DNA of 19,176 nucleotides, from the NCBI GenBank assembly GCA_016930515.1, contig JAFGGO010000006.1, positions 1 to 19,176 on the forward strand. The letters are read 5' to 3'. The position numbers were made by a program, and so were the translations under genes. Origin of the DNA: Promethearchaeota archaeon. Its GTDB lineage: Archaea > Asgardarchaeota > Lokiarchaeia > Sigyniarchaeales > SOKP01. This document shows positions 5,505 through 19,176 of the stretch, piece after piece. The notes below the pieces were generated by a model. It was not told where the DNA came from, ran no database searches, and saw nothing but the letters and a program-made list of their open reading frames with translations. Each line of letters begins with the position of its first letter. Positions within the stretch are counted from its first letter, which is position 1.

Positions 5505-6116
5505 ATGGGTGCTTTTTGGGATTTTATCCTTCAAATAACAAACAATGTCGGGGCGGGAGTGTGTTTACTTATTTGTGGTGCCGTGTGGGTACTAGATACG
5601 GCTTTTGAGGCATCAAGAAGAGAAGGTTTTTTCAAGAGGGATGATAATTGGAATTTTGATGTGACAACCCTACTCAAGATCTTAACTATAATTGCGTGTA
5701 GCACGGGGTTTATTTTCATCATTATTGGTATCCTTGGGTATTTCAACGATACTATCACTACAACACTCACTTCGACTTCTTTAATAATATTAGGTTTTTT
5801 AACAATTCTCAAACCAGTAAATGACTTACCTATAGCTAGCATGATAGGATTTTTCTCGGCCACGCTTGTCGCACTAATAATTGCCACTATCATATATTTT
5901 TCACCGTTAGAATTGGCAGATTTTAAATGGCAATGGGGAGTCTTCATCGTGATCGTGCTCGTTATCGTGTTCATAGCATCCACCTTGATCGCAAAATTTT
6001 GGGTAGCATTACCGAAGTTAATCTCCAAGATCGTGTCTTGGCCGGTTGTTTCGGTGATCGGAGCAGCATATTCATTTATTCTTGGTGGTCTGGTGTTAGC
6101 AGGAATTTATGTATAG
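5505..6116 (+). CDS. Hypothetical polytopic membrane protein (about 6 TM helices)
   Basis: 203 aa with six hydrophobic segments. TGAGGT SD-like motif about 10 nt upstream and an oligo-T tract directly downstream. Confidence 0.8.
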   Translation: MGAFWDFILQITNNVGAGVCLLICGAVWVLDTAFEASRREGFFKRDDNWNFDVTTLLKILTIIACSTGFIFIIIGILGYFNDTITTTLTSTSLIILGFLTILKPVNDLPIASMIGFFSATLVALIIATIIYFSPLELADFKWQWGVFIVIVLVIVFIASTLIAKFWVALPKLISKIVSWPVVSVIGAAYSFILGGLVLAGIYV

Positions 6117-9836: not shown

Positions 9837-11612
9837 ATGATAGCTTTTGGAGCCTTAATTTTTACCTCAATTTACGCATCGCTAACATCTATTTTTCGAA
9901 GGTTTTTGAAAAAAAAGCAATCAGAAAAAGAAGTAAAACCAAAACCAAAATCCGTAAATGAATTGTTAGACAAGTACGTTGAAGACGAGAAGAAAGACTT
10001 GATGAAAGACAAGCTTTCGAAAATATCCGAAATCATCGCAGAAACCGAAAGACACATAGAGAAAACGGTCAAACAAAAAGTAAAAGTCGCCGAAAAGCAG
10101 CATAAAGTTCAGGAAAAAGAATTTGAAGTAATTAAAAGAGCCAATATCGAGTATGTCTCTTTTTCTGCTGGCCTTCGTTCTGCAATGCCCACAACAGAAG
10201 AGGAGAAAAAGCAAGATATTAGCGATCTCCAAGAAGCAATGTCCATGTTAGAAACACTTGAAGAATTCTCAGTCGACATTTCAAATAAAAAAATAGATGT
10301 GGGTCTTGGCATGTTCTACGATAAAATGTCAAGGCAATTCAAAAAGATAATTAACGAAAACAATCTTTCAGCGTACCCTTTCATCCCTTCCGAGCGCCTT
10401 AAATATCACGCATTCTTAAACATAAAGAACATAAAGAATTCGGATATTTTACCCATCTTGAGCATCATGAAAGAAACAAACCTGCTTAACGACATTATAG
10501 AAATCAATCCTACCTTTCACCTGATTATATTTACCGAAACTCCCTTGGAAGTTACAACTCCCGAAAAAGTAGTTTTGACATTTGCTTACGACGAGGAGAG
10601 CCTTAACACTGAAAAGCTCATGGAGTTGACGGAATGGAAACAACCTTACGCAGAAAAGATTCTTGGTGGCTTGATTGACAAGGCTATTGTTAAAATGAAG
10701 GATGGAAGGATCACGGTAGATAGTTTCGGTGATCCCGAAGAAAGATCCAAGTGGAGAGATATCATACACCAACAACTTCTAATGGAAAAAGAAAAGGAAG
10801 AATTAAGATTCCAAAGATATTTAGATCGTAGAAAGAAGCTCCAAGGCACTATTAAATCTCAAGAAAAAACAGAAGAAGCTGAAATCGAAGAAGAGAGTTT
10901 AGAAGAAGAACCAGTAAAAAAGATAAGTTTTGAGAAAAAACCCACGGTCAAGTTACCACCTAAAAAGAAAGAAGATATTAGCGTGAAAATCAAGAGAACA
11001 AAGGATGAAGAGGCAGTAAAAGCTGAACCGGCAAGAATCATAAAGGAAAAAGACGATTTACTTAGCGCAATGGAAGCTTTAGACGAGGAAAAAACAGAAG
11101 GGGTCAATTCAGCTCAAGCAATTAGGAATTCCTCCGAAAGCGATTTTGAGTTAGACTTTAACTTGGACGAGGAAGAAAGAGATTTAAGCGATTTAATCCC
11201 GGAAAAGGTCTTGAATTTTCACGAAGATTTTTCTTTGATTAATGGTGGTCTCGTTCAATACGAAAAAATAAAGCAATACATTCAAGAGCAACTCGCCGAA
11301 ATAACGGCCGAAATACCTGAAGACTTATTATCGGCGATTTTAGAACAATTAAAAGAACTACAAATGATACAGGATTTAATTAAAATTGGTAATAGTAAAT
11401 TTCTCTTGTTTTCCGATGTTAAATTGAATTTCATGCACAAGAGGTTTATTGGTTTTGCGTTGGACAAAAAACCCTTGAAAAAACAAGATTTCATTGAAGG
11501 ATTGAGATGGAACGAGGAGAAGGTACTCAATACAATGAAAGAGCTCCAAGAAATGGGAATGATGCGCATTGAAAACAACGATATAATCATTCCAGGAATT
11601 ATTCAAAAATAA
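9837..11612 (+). CDS. Membrane-anchored protein with two EAP30 (ESCRT-II Vps22/Vps36)-like tandem winged-helix modules
   Basis: N-terminal hydrophobic segment followed by a basic cluster, then coiled coil. Module 1 (aa ~155-298): GLGMFYDKM...PLEVTTPEKVVLTFA...TEWKQPYAEKILGGLIDKAIV. Acidic/Lys-rich linker. Module 2 (aa ~450-587): INGGLV...LRWNEEKVLNTMKELQEMGM. Both resemble SNF8 motifs recalled from memory (GVGDFYYEL, NGGLI, PAELNMDHTVVLQLA, LKWETERARQVLEHL). The CDS is secure; the family assignment is by eye. Confidence 0.75.
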   Translation: MIAFGALIFTSIYASLTSIFRRFLKKKQSEKEVKPKPKSVNELLDKYVEDEKKDLMKDKLSKISEIIAETERHIEKTVKQKVKVAEKQHKVQEKEFEVIKRANIEYVSFSAGLRSAMPTTEEEKKQDISDLQEAMSMLETLEEFSVDISNKKIDVGLGMFYDKMSRQFKKIINENNLSAYPFIPSERLKYHAFLNIKNIKNSDILPILSIMKETNLLNDIIEINPTFHLIIFTETPLEVTTPEKVVLTFAYDEESLNTEKLMELTEWKQPYAEKILGGLIDKAIVKMKDGRITVDSFGDPEERSKWRDIIHQQLLMEKEKEELRFQRYLDRRKKLQGTIKSQEKTEEAEIEEESLEEEPVKKISFEKKPTVKLPPKKKEDISVKIKRTKDEEAVKAEPARIIKEKDDLLSAMEALDEEKTEGVNSAQAIRNSSESDFELDFNLDEEERDLSDLIPEKVLNFHEDFSLINGGLVQYEKIKQYIQEQLAEITAEIPEDLLSAILEQLKELQMIQDLIKIGNSKFLLFSDVKLNFMHKRFIGFALDKKPLKKQDFIEGLRWNEEKVLNTMKELQEMGMMRIENNDIIIPGIIQK

Positions 11613-13464: not shown

Positions 13465-14349
13465 CTATTTCTGGATGCTCTTAATTGCGTCCCTAAGAAT
13501 GGCGTGGATTTTTTCCCGATATAATGGTTCAATTGCCACCATGGTGTGGAAGGTTATGCTTCGTTCCTTGGTGGAAAGTAACTTTTTACAAAACTCTGGT
13601 GTTAATCTATTTGGAAGGTCTTGTTTGTTGGCAATTCCAATGACCAACTTATCTTTATAATGAGTCTCCAAAATGTCTTGAATGATGAGTTTCGAGGAGT
13701 TTAAGTTCTCAAAGGTGGAATCCGTAACTAAAAGCGCTATATCCGTCCCCTCCAATAAACTACCCCATAGGGAGCGAAAGTTGGATTGTCCAGCAAAGTC
13801 CCAAAACACGATTTCCCTGTGTAATTCCGAATCGAGATCTTCTCCCTCGAGAGAAGTAATGTCTGCAGTTATCGTTGGAACATATTCTAAATTAAGCTCC
13901 TTGCCGCAAATCAAGTGTAGAAGGGAGGTTTTTCCCACACCGCCAAGACCGATAATGGAAACCTTTATTGACCCTAGTATAATATTATCTAATTCTTTTG
14001 TAAAACCGTAGAAAATGGATCGATCTCCTTTCCAACGACCCTCTTGGATGTAGTCTTGATATTTCTCCATGAATTTAGTTTTTATACTCGCGATTTTTGG
14101 GTTGATCTGAGCATCGTCATCGTTGAGATCGGCACAAACAACGATTATAATACTTTCTATAATGGTGTAATAATATTTATTATCCTCTGTTGAGGTGCTC
14201 TTGATATCTGATTGTGAGATTTCTTTCATAAATCCAGAAAAAGCGCTGAGAAAACCAGCTAATAGATCCCTATCAACATCGCTATCGCCGTAATTTCGAA
14301 ACAAAAGCGATTTGCCGTCCTTAGTAAGAATGTTTATGTATTGAATCAT
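13465..14349 (-). CDS. Longin-domain + Ras-superfamily (Arf/Rab/Roc-like) small GTPase fusion
   Basis: Start moved to ATG 14349 (the track begins at TTG 14370). N-terminal longin pattern MIQYINILTKDGKSLLFRNY...DLLAGFLSAFSGFMKEI...YYY...IIIVVCAD...IKTKFMEKY. GTPase motifs G1 GLGGVGKTS, G2 YVPTI, G3 WDFAGQ, G4 NKQD. Confidence 0.9.
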   Translation of the reverse strand: MIQYINILTKDGKSLLFRNYGDSDVDRDLLAGFLSAFSGFMKEISQSDIKSTSTEDNKYYYTIIESIIIVVCADLNDDDAQINPKIASIKTKFMEKYQDYIQEGRWKGDRSIFYGFTKELDNIILGSIKVSIIGLGGVGKTSLLHLICGKELNLEYVPTITADITSLEGEDLDSELHREIVFWDFAGQSNFRSLWGSLLEGTDIALLVTDSTFENLNSSKLIIQDILETHYKDKLVIGIANKQDLPNRLTPEFCKKLLSTKERSITFHTMVAIEPLYREKIHAILRDAIKSIQK

Positions 14350-14525
14350 ATCTTGCGTAGTAAAAAACAAAATTGATCAAGTAAGTCTTATCTACTTGAC
14401 TAAAATTATATATTAAATTGTTTTTATTTAATTAATAAAGCGCGATTAATATAAAAATTTCTTTTTCTCGTGTTTCGTTGTATCGAGAAATACCCTACTA
14501 TTGAAAGCTTTTCAAGGGATAAAAA

Positions 14526-15193: not shown

Positions 15194-18151
15194 TCAAGAA
15201 TCGTTAATCTCAGCAAGTATCTTCTCGTTCAGATAATAATATTTCTTTTGCTTACTCGAGATGATGTCCAACTCTTCAAGTTTCTTCACATATTTTTTTA
15301 TAGTGTTATAATGCATTCCCAATTCTTTAGAAAGTTCCGTTAGCAGGCATCCCTCGTCGTTCTTCTTCAAGTATTCTATGATATTTTTACTTTTTTCTCG
15401 AGATATGAAATGCATGAGTTCTGTATCTTGATGTTTCGTTTCGTTATCAAAATATGCGTGTTGATTCCCAATTTGTTCCAACCGTACGAATTGAAATTTA
15501 TTTAACATGTTTACGTGCCATCGAACCACCATCCGGGCAATTTTCGTCTTTTTTATTATCTTGTTAAAGTGAATGCCTGGATTATCTTTAACGCATTTGT
15601 ATATCTTTTTCCTGTTATTATTATTGAGAATATCATCTTTTGTCAATATGGACCCTTCAATGATTAAATTCTTTTTGATTAGAGAACGTATGACTTTTTT
15701 AATTCCGTTTACATTCACATTAATCGAGGCTTTCGAAAACCTCGAATTAAGGTAAGACACGATGGTTATAGGATCAAAATGCTTGTGTTTTTCCACATAT
15801 TCTTGTATCAATTCCAAGGCATAATCCTCGTAAACTAAAACGTCTTCTTTCTTCTTTTCTTCTAATATTGGGGGAACTGTTTCAAGATCTATTAATACGC
15901 CATCTAGGGTTTCTAACCTCTCGCTTGGAGACAAAGAGAGCATTTCCCGTAGAAACTCCTCCTTCATGCTCGGACTAAATCCCAATGTGTCAATATTAGT
16001 AAGAAATTCGTTCGAGACTGTCGTAGTTAAGGGTTTTCCTGCCAAACCCGAAATTTGTTCGAGGGGAATATCGTCTTTGAAGATTTTTAGGAGTTCATCC
16101 TTGTTCGTTAGCTTATTTAATATTTCTTTCGAAGATTTTATTGGTTGTTTTAGTTGTTTTACATTTTTTCCGTGTTTACTTGATTTCTTTCCCTTTATTT
16201 TCTTTTTAGCTATTTTTGACGCCTGCGTGGTTGCTTGTTTTGCGTGATAAACCGAATAACTGGCAGCCGTTGCAACTCCCCCCACGCCAACACTTGCTAC
16301 GACGGTAGTAACAATTATCATCGTAGGGTCGTCTTGATCTCGATGATCTTGATTATCGTCATTAGGAGTTACTTGAATTAATATTTCACATGTGCTTTGG
16401 TATCCCCCATAATCCGATACTTCCAAGACCACCGTATAAATTCCTTGGACCAAGTATTGATGTTGGGGATTTCTATTTGTCGAATTAGTTCCATCGCCGA
16501 ATTCCCAGAGAAAAGAGACTGGGCCAAACCCTCCCGTACCCGTGAAAGTAAATTGAATGATCTCTCTTTCAGAAATACGCGAAATATTTACGATAAAGGA
16601 CACATGCAAGGTCGTATCAATTAACGGATAGTGGTCTCGCGCCCCTGAGGTACCACTTAGATCGTAGGAACTATCTCCTATACCATAAGGTAAAGCCTCG
16701 TCAATGCCCCCATAATCGCTCCATAAATTACCTATTGAACCGTTATCCCATTGATTATTCGTACCGTTATCCATGCCATTTACACCGTTTTGCGTAAAAA
16801 TATTGAGATATATGAGACTATATTCACAATCGTCGTCTAAATTTATTCCATATATCGTATTATAGCTGATATTATTACCTATAACTGAATTATTCACACA
16901 AGTGTCGCTTATATATATCCCACGGCTATTATAGTTAATTGTATTTCTTAATAAAAAGTTAGAACTTCCCTTATATGAATATATTCCGTAAAAGTTGTTA
17001 TTGTCGATATAATTTTCCGAAATGGTGTTATTATCGCAGTTGCCATTTATATAAAATCCGTTATTGTTATAACTTGCGTTGTTTTCTGTAAATGTATTGT
17101 TATCGCAATGGGAATTTAAATAAATCCCACGATAATTATATGAGACATTATTTTCTGAAATGGTATTATTTTCACAATTCTGATGTAAATATATCCCAAA
17201 TTGATGATTGTAAATGTGATTTTCCGTAATATTATTATCAGAACTCGAATAGAAGTGAATAGCCGCATACGTATTTGTAAAGCTCTCCCCTGAGATTACT
17301 GAATGCGAGCAATTGACTAACATAATTTGCCCTGCGTTAGAAAAGTTATCAGATTTTAATCCGATTTGATTTACATAATAATAAAATGGTTTATCATCTA
17401 CTCGATTCGATGTATTGATATCATGGGTGTTTAAATAATCAATTAAACCAGATCCAGTTACATATAGGCCACCTCCATAAATCATATTGTCAAACATATT
17501 TAATCCAAGACAGGAGGAGGAATAAATCCCACAGTAATGTGAATTACGTACCGTGTTTCCCGAAACGATTGTATTAATACATTCGTCGTATATATAAATC
17601 CCATAATCGTTATTACTAACATTATTCCCAAAGATCGTGTTATTATTCGAGTTTTCGCTTATATATATTCCAATACCTTGGTTGTATGAACAATTATTGT
17701 TCAAGATCTGCCCGTTTGAAGCGTTTAAAAGGAAGATTCCCGCGTAAGGACCAGAAGAAGAGTTGAATAAAGTACAATTTCTGACGATAAAATGAGCATT
17801 TGAATTCCTAATTTCGATACAGGAATCTGAACCACCTCCATTAATCGTCACATTCTCGATAACATAAGGGTTTCCTTCCGAACCATTTCCTATCGTGCAC
17901 CAATCTTGCATTCTCGCCCAAGTCCAGTTATACTCTCCCAAATCGTCTATATAAATTGGATCTAACGATGGCCAAAAATCTGAAATTCTCTGCTTTTCCA
18001 AGGGTGAAGCTATTTCAGAAGGCTTTTCAGTTAATGTAATAAAACCTTGAATCAAACATGTGGTAAATATGAAAGTAAATATCGCAAGTAATATTAGGAA
18101 TGATCTTTTCCTCTTGATCTCATATACTTTTCCTGATTTCTTTTTTAACAA
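15194..18151 (-). CDS. Transmembrane protein: NosD/CASH beta-helix + PKD ectodomain, TM helix, cytoplasmic tandem winged-HTH (COG3398/ArsR-like) regulator
   Basis: TTG start with AGGGGA SD. Signal/TM at aa 18-40. GxGSEGNPYVIEN and GIY...N.I..N repeats ending in GNLWSDY...DHYPL (aa 65-510). PKD WEFGDG...NPQHQY..GIYTVVLEVSD (aa 515-595). TM at aa 611-635, then a Lys-rich stop-transfer segment. wHTH units NRKKIYKCVKDNPGIHFNKI...WHVNML and IIEYL...LTELSKELGMHYNTIKKYVKKLEELDII. Confidence 0.88.
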   Translation of the reverse strand: MLKKKSGKVYEIKRKRSFLILLAIFTFIFTTCLIQGFITLTEKPSEIASPLEKQRISDFWPSLDPIYIDDLGEYNWTWARMQDWCTIGNGSEGNPYVIENVTINGGGSDSCIEIRNSNAHFIVRNCTLFNSSSGPYAGIFLLNASNGQILNNNCSYNQGIGIYISENSNNNTIFGNNVSNNDYGIYIYDECINTIVSGNTVRNSHYCGIYSSSCLGLNMFDNMIYGGGLYVTGSGLIDYLNTHDINTSNRVDDKPFYYYVNQIGLKSDNFSNAGQIMLVNCSHSVISGESFTNTYAAIHFYSSSDNNITENHIYNHQFGIYLHQNCENNTISENNVSYNYRGIYLNSHCDNNTFTENNASYNNNGFYINGNCDNNTISENYIDNNNFYGIYSYKGSSNFLLRNTINYNSRGIYISDTCVNNSVIGNNISYNTIYGINLDDDCEYSLIYLNIFTQNGVNGMDNGTNNQWDNGSIGNLWSDYGGIDEALPYGIGDSSYDLSGTSGARDHYPLIDTTLHVSFIVNISRISEREIIQFTFTGTGGFGPVSFLWEFGDGTNSTNRNPQHQYLVQGIYTVVLEVSDYGGYQSTCEILIQVTPNDDNQDHRDQDDPTMIIVTTVVASVGVGGVATAASYSVYHAKQATTQASKIAKKKIKGKKSSKHGKNVKQLKQPIKSSKEILNKLTNKDELLKIFKDDIPLEQISGLAGKPLTTTVSNEFLTNIDTLGFSPSMKEEFLREMLSLSPSERLETLDGVLIDLETVPPILEEKKKEDVLVYEDYALELIQEYVEKHKHFDPITIVSYLNSRFSKASINVNVNGIKKVIRSLIKKNLIIEGSILTKDDILNNNNRKKIYKCVKDNPGIHFNKIIKKTKIARMVVRWHVNMLNKFQFVRLEQIGNQHAYFDNETKHQDTELMHFISREKSKNIIEYLKKNDEGCLLTELSKELGMHYNTIKKYVKKLEELDIISSKQKKYYYLNEKILAEINDS
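16991..17197 (-). repeat. Degenerate 69-bp (23-aa) coding repeats of parallel beta-helix coils
   Basis: GIYLHQNCENNTISENNVSYNYR / GIYLNSHCDNNTFTENNASYNNN / GFYINGNCDNNTISENYIDNNNF. Confidence 0.75.
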
Positions 18152-18577
18152 ATGATATCCCCTTATTTCTCTTGGTTTCTTATTATTATTCCAATATCAT
18201 TTTATTACTTGAATTTATAACAATTCGTGAAATTATAATTTAGAACAATTGATGAAAATCTTGCAAGAATTATTATACCTTATTATGATTTAAAATATTT
18301 AATAAGGAAAAGCATTGACATTCTTGCCAACATCTATTTAGTATTCAACTTATCGTTAATATCCCTAAACTATTTGATTTTAATAAATTTAAATCAAGCA
18401 AGGCGATATATAAATGGGTATAGAACCTTTTTGAAATTTGATTTCTTTAAAAATGGCCAAAGATAACGGATACTTATCAATCTAATACTTGTTAAGAATA
18501 GATTAAGGATCTTGCTTCCATGGATAATTATATCGGAAAAAAAGGAAAAATAAAAAAAATAAATAATATTTAGCTGT

Positions 18578-19176
18578 TTATTTTTGCGATCTATTGTTTC
18601 GAATTCTTTTCAAGTAAATCGTGATCATCGAAATAAAGCAAGTTAATCCAGAAAATATTATTAAATCAAAACCTATGACAGAATTCTCTTCTTCTTTTAT
18701 CGAAACTATGATATAATCGACTTTTGTTTTAGTACTATTATACCCATAACTATCGGTAATTATGAGAGTCACCGTATAGTTGCCTGCAGTAGTGTATTGA
18801 TGCATTGGGTTTTGTTCAGTTGATGTAATACTATCACCAAAATCCCAGAAAAATGATAATTGTCCATTTCCTTCGGTTCCATTGAAGGTGAATCGAACAA
18901 CATCACCTTCAGATATGGTCGTTGCGTTTGCGTAAAAGTCCGCTTCGGGAAGGATCTCGACAAAATCATCAAGAACCTTGATATAGAAGGTCTTGATCTC
19001 AATGTCCCAATCACCATTAGCGTCAGTAACATTTAATATTACAGTATAGATTCCTGCGATTGCGTATAGATGGGTTATCGTGTGAGAGGTCGTCGTAAGA
19101 ATAGGTGTTCCGTTCCCAAAATCCCACGAGTATAACGCAGGAGAGTTTCCTTCGGTTCCATTGAAGGTGAATTGAA
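18578..19176 (-). CDS. PKD-repeat cell-surface protein with C-terminal Loki-CTERM-like anchor; 3' part only, gene begins beyond the right edge
   Basis: The frame of track ORF 18578..18805 is open to the window edge: QFTFNGTEGNSPALYSWDFGNG...HLYAIAGIYTVILNVTD...PEADFYANATTISEGDVVRFTFNGTEGNGQLSFFWDFGD...NPMHQYTTAGNYTVTLIITD...VIGFDLIIFSGLTCFISMITIYLKRIR. This gives two PKD domains, a TM helix and a basic tail. Confidence 0.9.
   Translation of the reverse strand, partial: QFTFNGTEGNSPALYSWDFGNGTPILTTTSHTITHLYAIAGIYTVILNVTDANGDWDIEIKTFYIKVLDDFVEILPEADFYANATTISEGDVVRFTFNGTEGNGQLSFFWDFGDSITSTEQNPMHQYTTAGNYTVTLIITDSYGYNSTKTKVDYIIVSIKEEENSVIGFDLIIFSGLTCFISMITIYLKRIRNNRSQK
18867..19172. repeat. 27-bp exact direct repeat TTTCCTTCGGTTCCATTGAAGGTGAAT (18867-18893, 19146-19172)
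   Basis: Identical copies 279 bp (93 codons) apart, encoding FTFNGTEG in successive PKD domains. Confidence 0.9.

Follow-up and report, generated by a model that had tools for sequence, protein, structure and literature searches.

How could a condition met at the surface of an archaeal cell act on its genes through a single polypeptide? This question is raised by the open reading frame (ORF) at 15194-18151 on the reverse strand of contig JAFGGO010000006.1 (assembly GCA_016930515.1), within a stretch of 19,176 nucleotides from a Promethearchaeota archaeon that is referred to below as the window. The ORF consists of 985 codons with zero internal stops and begins with a TTG codon at position 18151, preceded 7 nt upstream by AAGGGG. 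Its length is noteworthy because long open frames are rare by chance at the G+C content found here (29-43% in 1-kb windows of the surrounding DNA and 32-38% across the gene). The order of the parts in the protein is a signal or anchor segment, a NosD-type beta-helix, a PKD domain, one transmembrane (TM) helix, a basic inside flank and three winged helices (wH). An earlier note on this DNA had read the gene as one uninterrupted frame joining an ectodomain, a TM helix and tandem winged helix-turn-helix (wHTH) units; its description of the frame and of the architecture, including the Lys-rich flank, proved correct in every checkable detail. The receptor described in the note does not stand alone: it is the rare fused form of a module which is usually encoded by two adjacent genes, and on balance the gene probably encodes a membrane-coupled transcription-regulator module.

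The Pfam matches of the 985-aa protein all exceed the curated cut-offs. Those of the ectodomain are NosD (111 bits) and Beta_helix (102 bits) at amino acids (aa) 94-482, and PKD_4 (47 bits) at aa 524-587. Identity with NosD itself, the nitrous oxide reductase maturation protein, was rejected, since TIGR04247 scores 79 bits against a cut-off of 300 and only the generic beta-helix repeat is common to both. The Kyte-Doolittle plot shows two hydrophobic segments only, at aa 15-41 and 608-631, and the second, which the earlier note had placed near aa 611-635, is preceded by an acidic stretch and followed by a Lys-rich one. The topology proposed previously, with the ectodomain outside and the winged helices inside, is backed by this hydropathy and by the charged flanks, and the distribution of N-x-S/T sequons supports it weakly. 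The counts given before were reproduced: there are 24 sequons in aa 75-556, where shuffles that preserve the composition give 13.5 ± 3.1 (P about 0.001). Behind the TM helix, 2 are found against 2.9 expected, which is no excess. The excess in the ectodomain is partly due to the N-N-T/S consensus of the beta-helix repeat, and the one cultured Asgard archaeon studied in this respect uses N-x-S/T as its sequon (PMC11284389).

Split and fused forms of one module

The genome (4.0 Mb, 190 contigs, 94% complete) was searched with aa 640-985 of the protein, all the ORFs were laid out, and profiles were built for the two parts of the tail. Three further full-length paralogues with the same plan, whose tails are 52-56% identical, occur on contigs C45, C172 and C27. 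The same search yielded about fifteen proteins of ~220 aa matching only aa ~775-985, and several large ORFs matching only aa ~666-755. The latter segment, formerly regarded as a linker, is a conserved cytoplasmic domain, here named LINK, which is predicted to dock onto the first and second winged helices (wH1 and wH2). In this genome, as in other genera of the family, membrane proteins normally end in LINK, which follows immediately upon their final TM helix and a basic segment, and the three-wH protein of ~220 aa is usually encoded by the gene right after that of the LINK protein. Besides the four fused genes, at least nine pairs consisting of a LINK gene followed by a wH gene are present, the two genes overlapping by 11 nt at one extreme and lying 27 nt apart at the other, and the reverse gene order is found at two loci. 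In all, there are about 15 LINK/wH modules (13 pairs or fusions in the order LINK to wH, plus the reverse-order loci) among about 20 wH-array genes. The module can be defined by a LINK core with an invariant Phe and an invariant Arg right after the last TM helix, followed by or lying beside a three-wH array with an invariant Trp-His in wH2. The window protein carries all these residues (F733, R745, W878 and H879), and matches the LINK profile at 3e-46 (aa 641-771) and the wH-array profile at 5e-82 (aa 775-977).

The ectodomains of the LINK membrane partners vary: NosD beta-helix, PKD, Big_7, SBBP beta-propeller and unrecognised types were found, and some partners have none. The swapping of ectodomains among relatives, which the earlier note had suggested looking for, is thus seen among the LINK partners, as it is within the fused clade described below. 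At one locus of this genome (L016, G000:C151, 1615-4353(-)), a beta-helix-TM-LINK gene (678 aa) and a wH gene (224 aa) share one frame, with only a TAA and 27 nt between them. Either this pair is a recently split fused gene, or its stop codon is sometimes read through; in the tree, its wH part groups outside the fused clade.

Beyond this genome, matches to the LINK profile occur in 113 of the 134 genomes of the same family, in a handful of genomes from elsewhere in the order or class, and not in the other families of the phylum that were sampled. Strong matches to the three-wH array occur in 126 of these 134 genomes, with weaker single matches elsewhere in the phylum, and the relatives fetched are metagenome-assembled genomes of Promethearchaeota and Hodarchaeota. 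The adjacency of the two genes is conserved: a wH gene adjoins the LINK gene at all nine loci fetched through LINK in other genomes, and a LINK match lies just upstream, on the same strand, of each of the 20 best wH-array matches. Proteins combining full-length LINK with the wH array are few, since a profile search of 1.84 billion representative proteins yielded only five, four of which come from this genome; another, from an NCBI assembly, was found by a separate search. The two external fused proteins are encoded on independent assemblies (NCBI GCA_016839425.1 and ENA ERZ27256988), and the fact that one of them has a PKD-only ectodomain points to ectodomain exchange within the fused clade.

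The 150 best wH-array representatives include 75 soluble full three-wH proteins, about 30 arrays joined directly, without LINK, to TM segments at the N-terminus (one or two, seldom more), and one fusion of six TM helices, LINK and the array. In the wH-array tree, the fused proteins of the beta-helix/PKD type form one clade (SH-aLRT 98) of six members, namely the four paralogues of this genome and the two from other assemblies, and the six-TM fusion is placed elsewhere. The single clade indicates that the architecture seen in the window arose once and was then duplicated; to judge from the sequences, the attachment of the wH regulator to the membrane is reached in several independent ways.

That most relatives are split at exactly the same point would favour the idea that the frame is an artefact, in which two neighbouring genes, one for a surface protein and one for a regulator, were joined by misassembly or by an error in sequencing. 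This explanation is extremely improbable. The junction is open and conserved in four diverged paralogues on four contigs (the window protein and the three others) and in the two external proteins, and the fused proteins form one clade; the independence of the two assemblies rules out misassembly for practical purposes, and the junction is to be regarded as genuine. The earlier note would have given up its reading if relatives always encoded the HTH part separately: most of them do so, yet the six fused proteins exist.

Three variants of the module were also observed (Table 1). The membrane partner encoded before the wH gene carries two LINK domains in tandem in other genera of the family. A three-gene order recurs, with a three-wH gene, a short wH gene (141-165 aa) and a gene encoding a giant beta-helix membrane protein (1000-1500 aa) which ends in LINK. 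In a common class of proteins of ~350 aa, two N-terminal TM helices are fused directly to the three-wH array without LINK.

The LINK domain and the winged-helix array

The alignments of LINK show the core motif L-T-x-V-S-x-x-F-L...F-[IL]-R-E-M-L-x-x-S-P-x-E-R, in which F733 and R745 are invariant or nearly so. Over LINK, no Pfam match was obtained in the window protein or in any of the LINK proteins of the genome, and a profile search against the sequences of the PDB gave nothing below E 0.07. When the predicted fold was compared with 48,161 chains by VIA-align, the best Z (5.4, with AAA+ lid-like helical bundles) was below what is meaningful for helical domains, and the ESM Atlas gave only matches with TM-scores of about 0.5. 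LINK as modelled has no clear fold match, which does not prove that its fold is new. The nearest ESM Atlas cluster to the model of aa 668-760 is a Promethearchaeota family of 262-aa proteins (TM-score 0.52 over 58 residues), automatically named 'ubiquitin-like domain-containing' (PF00240 in 23% of the members), which may be the same as the conserved LINK proteins of ~266-270 aa. In several split LINK proteins (Table 1), LINK is directly preceded by a zinc-ribbon-like motif, Y-C-x-x-C-A...C-W-x-C (CxxC-x10-11-CxxC), which is absent from the window protein and recalls zinc-binding anti-sigma domains.

The distances between LINK domains and those between wH arrays co-vary over 21 pairs (Mantel r 0.81, reached in 0 of 5000 permutations), as they do when only the nine split pairs of this genome are taken (r 0.47, reached in 53 of 5000 permutations), which shows in these sequences that the two parts were duplicated as a unit rather than that they bind each other, the relatedness of the pairs inflating the figures. 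The complex of the split pair on contig C47, predicted with alignments for both chains, scored 0.77, as compared with 0.31 for the best control, a mark that 58 of 80 solved complexes and 2 of 110 mismatched pairs attained. The three runs shared at least 81% of their contacts, with a partner local confidence (pLDDT) of at least 84. Since LINK has no solved relative by sequence, it is unlikely that the prediction recalls a known complex. In the model, the wH protein touches LINK with wH1, with the helix at its N-terminus and with the recognition helix of wH2, and the contact with the lowest predicted error pairs a Trp of wH2 with a Phe of LINK, both near-invariant, which correspond to W878 and F733 in the window protein. 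No residue of the wH protein beyond 122 belongs to the modelled interface, which leaves the C-terminal ArsR-like wH free. Both W878 and F733 are invariant in the fused clade, where docking has ceased to be needed for tethering; if the model is right, the contact would seem to serve for more than anchoring the array.

In the AlphaFold2 (AF2) model of aa 640-985 (pLDDT 72.7), the tail folds into three wH units, about the number previously proposed. The second unit matches HTH_24 (43 bits at aa 844-908, cut-off 21.9) and belongs to the HTH_HVO_0163_N family (PF24266; 38.8 bits at aa 845-908, gathering score 31), and the third matches HTH_11 (27.8 bits at aa 922-972, cut-off 25). The closest sequences in the PDB to the wH-array profile are those of archaeal DNA-binding wHTH proteins, with 5duk_A at the head (8.7e-10), followed by TFE, AF2008, Lrs14 and Sso10a. 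The third winged helix (wH3) superposes on ArsR 6j05_A (VIA-align Z 13.9, root-mean-square deviation 1.9 Å, 81 residues aligned), including the helix after the wing. Membership of the ArsR/SmtB metalloregulator family was rejected: the NF033788 score is 19.2 bits against a cut-off of 55, and the likeness is one of fold only. The tail has a net charge of +11. Among the paralogues of the genome, the scaffold of the recognition helices is conserved, and the residues at their N-terminal ends differ between subgroups, a pattern resembling that of families of sequence-specific regulators. By its fold and its family, from which we infer DNA binding, the three-wH array appears to be of the DNA-binding type.

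From the membrane to the genes

If the gene encodes a membrane-coupled regulator, the protein would be bitopic, with the sequon-rich beta-helix and the PKD domain outside, and its cytoplasmic tail would be a covalent fusion of the two halves of the two-gene module, namely the LINK domain of ~90 aa and the three-wH array of ~210 aa. LINK would clamp wH1 and the recognition helix of wH2, and would leave the C-terminal ArsR-like wH exposed. The state of the ectodomain (the presence of a ligand, contact with a surface, or clustering) may alter the hold of LINK on the array or the number of tails gathered together, and either change would switch DNA binding and transcription. Where the two halves are separate proteins, the membrane partner would act like an anti-sigma factor, holding the regulator and perhaps masking it; in the fused protein the array would be tethered as in ToxR/CadC, with the polarity reversed. 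The simplest route for a signal through a single TM helix might be the clustering or dimerisation of ectodomains, which would pair two ArsR-like wH units. The signal (in the earlier note, glycans or contact with partner cells), the direction of control, the binding to DNA and the target genes are purely those that we infer for such a module.

Several observations weigh against this reading. Some LINK proteins lack any ectodomain, and the term 'sensor' does not fit every member of the family. The complex prediction supports the binding of LINK to the wH array without showing it, the interface being a model and not a measurement. The support for the topology from sequons is weak because PKD proteins were undetected in the sole published Asgard glycoproteome, in which glycosylation was concentrated on one binding protein (PMC11284389). 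As regards a shared operator, no 9-mer or longer word is common to the 350-nt regions upstream of the four fused paralogues, and the two common 8-mers are within the background. No experimentally studied member of the wH family (PF24266/HVO_0163-like) or of the LINK family was found in the literature.

Tandem wH arrays are also used for protein or RNA binding, which weighs in the same direction, as do two features of the tail. The invariant Trp-His in the recognition helix of wH2 may mean that this helix is a protein interface and not a DNA reader, and with the whole tail Foldseek gave only generic tandem-wH matches, SelB, ESCRT-II, ScpB and RPC34/RPC62 (E 1e-3 to 1e-2) being as good as regulators. 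The three-wH array might accordingly be a protein or RNA adaptor and not a transcription factor: docked under surface proteins, it would serve as a scaffold from adhesins or envelope proteins to the cytoplasmic machinery, like the arrays of ESCRT-II, ScpB and RPC34. That the recognition helix of wH2 makes a protein contact in the complex model, that its Trp-His is invariant across the paralogues, and that the organism, an Asgard archaeon, has many eukaryote-like wH proteins would all agree with such a role. We nevertheless think an adaptor rather unlikely, since the TM-scores of the adaptor matches are 0.15-0.3, no Pfam match to the EAP30, Vps25 or ScpB families was obtained at E<=1, the tail is basic, and the sequence and fold matches of wH2 and wH3 are with ArsR, Lrp, TrmB, Lrs14, Sso10a and TFE, which are DNA binders.

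Another possibility is a release of the kind known from Notch and SREBP, in which the fused protein would be inactive at the membrane, and the wH array would become a soluble regulator once it was freed by a site-2 protease or by a cut in the connector at aa 756-774. The connector is disordered and lies exactly at the split point of the relatives, most of which have a soluble wH protein, and the TM helix is rich in Gly, Ala, Val and Thr; TM helices rich in small residues are however also found in the split partners, which need no cleavage. The genome contains one Peptidase_M50 gene, but its presence says little since M50 is universal (14 of 14 control genomes), and no rhomboid was found in this 94% complete genome. 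About 30 relatives in which the array is joined directly to TM hairpins suggest moreover that it is able to work at the membrane. Such a proteolytic release therefore seems improbable to us, and regulation by a membrane-coupled array is the reading retained here.

The gene in its surroundings and among known systems

The features of the gene and the loci carrying variants of the module are listed in Table 1. Upstream of the gene, beyond the 426-bp AT-rich spacer, lies the gene of a PKD-repeat protein (18578-19174(-)) with two PKD_4 units (8.7e-31), which is cut by the end of the contig; this protein may be a partner, either secreted or at the surface, or a mere neighbour. Two genes downstream of the fused gene, a 301-aa Asgard-type small GTPase is encoded at 13465-14370(-), with a Roc/Arf/Ras-type domain at aa 134-276 and an N-terminal extension of ~130 aa without any Pfam match. 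The window ORFs at 9837-11612(+) (591 aa) and 5505-6116(+) (203 aa) match no Pfam family at E<=0.001.

Table 1. Features of the fused gene in the window (positions in nucleotides) and loci carrying variants of the module.
Feature	Position	Strand	Evidence or remark
Upstream intergenic region, AT-rich, 426 bp, presumed own promoter	18152..18577	-	AAGGGG 7 nt before TTG start; no motif common with promoters of three fused paralogues
Signal peptide or signal anchor (aa 16-40) after Lys/Arg-rich N-terminus	18032..18106	-	Kyte-Doolittle window >1.6
Right-handed parallel beta-helix ectodomain (aa 94-511), NosD/CASH type, sequon-rich	16619..17872	-	Pfam NosD 5.8e-32, Beta_helix 2.3e-29; TIGR03804 repeat x9
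PKD domain (aa 524-587)	16391..16582	-	PKD_4 2e-12, PKD 1.1e-6
Single TM helix (aa 609-631), Gly/Ala/Val/Thr-rich, acidic stretch outside	16259..16327	-	Hydropathy
Basic juxtamembrane stretch (aa 632-665)	16157..16258	-	Low-confidence/disordered in AF2 model
LINK domain (aa 666-755), conserved six-helix cytoplasmic domain	15887..16156	-	Alignments; AF2 pLDDT 79; no Pfam or PDB-sequence match
Disordered connector (aa 756-774)	15830..15886	-	pLDDT <50; site of stop codon and next start in split relatives
Winged helix 1 (aa 775-842), predicted LINK contact surface	15626..15829	-	AF2 and complex models; no Pfam model
Winged helix 2 (aa 843-904), HTH_24/PF24266	15440..15625	-	Invariant W878-H879 in recognition helix, predicted packing on LINK F733; PDB profile match 5duk_A 8.7e-10
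Winged helix 3 (aa 905-985), ArsR/SmtB-like fold with C-terminal helix, HTH_11	15197..15439	-	VIA-align to ArsR 6j05_A; outside predicted LINK interface
Double-LINK loci	L039-L046		Genomes G258, G192, G214, G209, G218, G219, G204, G205
Three-gene order loci	L032, L033, L036; own genome L020 (G000:C32:1-8000)
Two TM helices and three-wH array	G000:C48:2937-4001 (L024)	+	Representatives P0009-P0065
Zinc-ribbon-like split LINK proteins	L013:2084-2479(-), L015:4424-4783(+), L018:1203-1559(+), L021:7324-7707(-), L017:3480-3818(-)

Membrane-bound regulators as a class are already known in archaea. A census of transmembrane transcription regulators (TTRs) found them in 367 of 404 archaeal species, at about 4 per genome and mostly single-pass; it covers one-protein systems only, and Asgard archaea are unmentioned in it (Demey et al. 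2023, PMC10269533). Like these TTRs (PMC10269533), the window protein combines a TM segment and a Pfam DNA-binding domain in one chain, whereas the usual form of the present family consists of two proteins joined by a docking domain, with about 20 wH-array genes per genome. As a class, such regulators are therefore not new. The expectation in the earlier note that the system is poorly described is supported for the family itself: in the literature searched, nothing on LINK/three-wH proteins appeared beyond this general census, and NCBI annotates a relative of the LINK protein as 'hypothetical protein'. The LINK domain, the LINK/wH operon, the expansion to about twenty wH-array genes, the restriction to one lineage and the natural occurrence of fused and split forms appear to be undescribed.

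ToxR, CadC and TcpP are likewise bitopic, with a sensor outside and a wHTH inside, are thought to act on DNA while tethered, and have adjoining partner genes (ToxS, VtrC). The window protein differs from ToxR/CadC in having its sensor at the N-terminus and its DNA-binding-type part at the C-terminus, in carrying three ArsR/Lrp-type wH units and LINK, and in its setting of archaeal transcription machinery; no Pfam match to the OmpR-type Trans_reg_C was obtained in it at E<=1. The coupling of a surface module to a wHTH regulator, as proposed in the earlier note, is supported; the ToxR/CadC precedent invoked for it there is an analogy only. The tail resembles the HVO_0163-like proteins (PF24266, COG3398-type) in the score of wH2 and in being a tandem wHTH array, and the Loki-family subgroup adds a third, ArsR-like wH and the LINK partner. 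HVO_0163 is uncharacterised, only an acetylome listing having been found in the literature, and nothing was found on COG3398. The likeness of wH3 to ArsR/SmtB extends to the helix after the wing, the difference being that wH3 is embedded in an array of three.

There is also a likeness in organisation to the extracytoplasmic function (ECF) sigma/anti-sigma pairs of bacteria. In both cases, adjacent and co-diverging genes encode a soluble regulator and a membrane protein with one TM pass whose outside part varies; the regulator is held, and its DNA-reading surface covered, by a small helical domain in the cytoplasm (as modelled, in the present case); and many paralogous pairs occur per genome. 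Some of the LINK proteins have a CxxC...CxxC zinc ribbon next to the docking domain. The adjacent membrane partner corresponds to an anti-sigma factor by analogy only, on the basis of the conserved adjacency and the modelled interface. Archaea use no sigma factors, and the window protein showed no Pfam or NCBIfam match to sigma-70 families and no known anti-sigma domain; the likeness, as far as the analogy goes, is one of logic and not of ancestry. Tentatively, and with rather less than even confidence, the LINK/three-wH pairs may be regarded as an archaeal counterpart of these systems, lineage-specific and heavily duplicated, in which the surface proteins, their ectodomains being interchangeable, would keep wH regulators of their own sequestered by means of the new docking domain until an outside cue releases or activates them. 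They would then be a main path of transmembrane signalling to the genes of Loki-type Asgard archaea, with the window gene as the covalently fused variant.

How Asgard archaea, which among prokaryotes are the nearest relatives of eukaryotes, perceive their environment or their partner cells is poorly understood. The present family offers a concrete and testable route from the surface to gene expression, with a new docking domain, a three-wH regulator which is either soluble or tethered, and swapped ectodomains, and the occurrence of fused and split forms in nature amounts to a Rosetta-stone test of the interaction. The number of paralogues in each genome points to a major signalling system of the lineage and not to a curiosity. 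If the sequestration model is true, the logic of anti-sigma factors would have been invented independently in a cell with a eukaryote-like transcription machinery.

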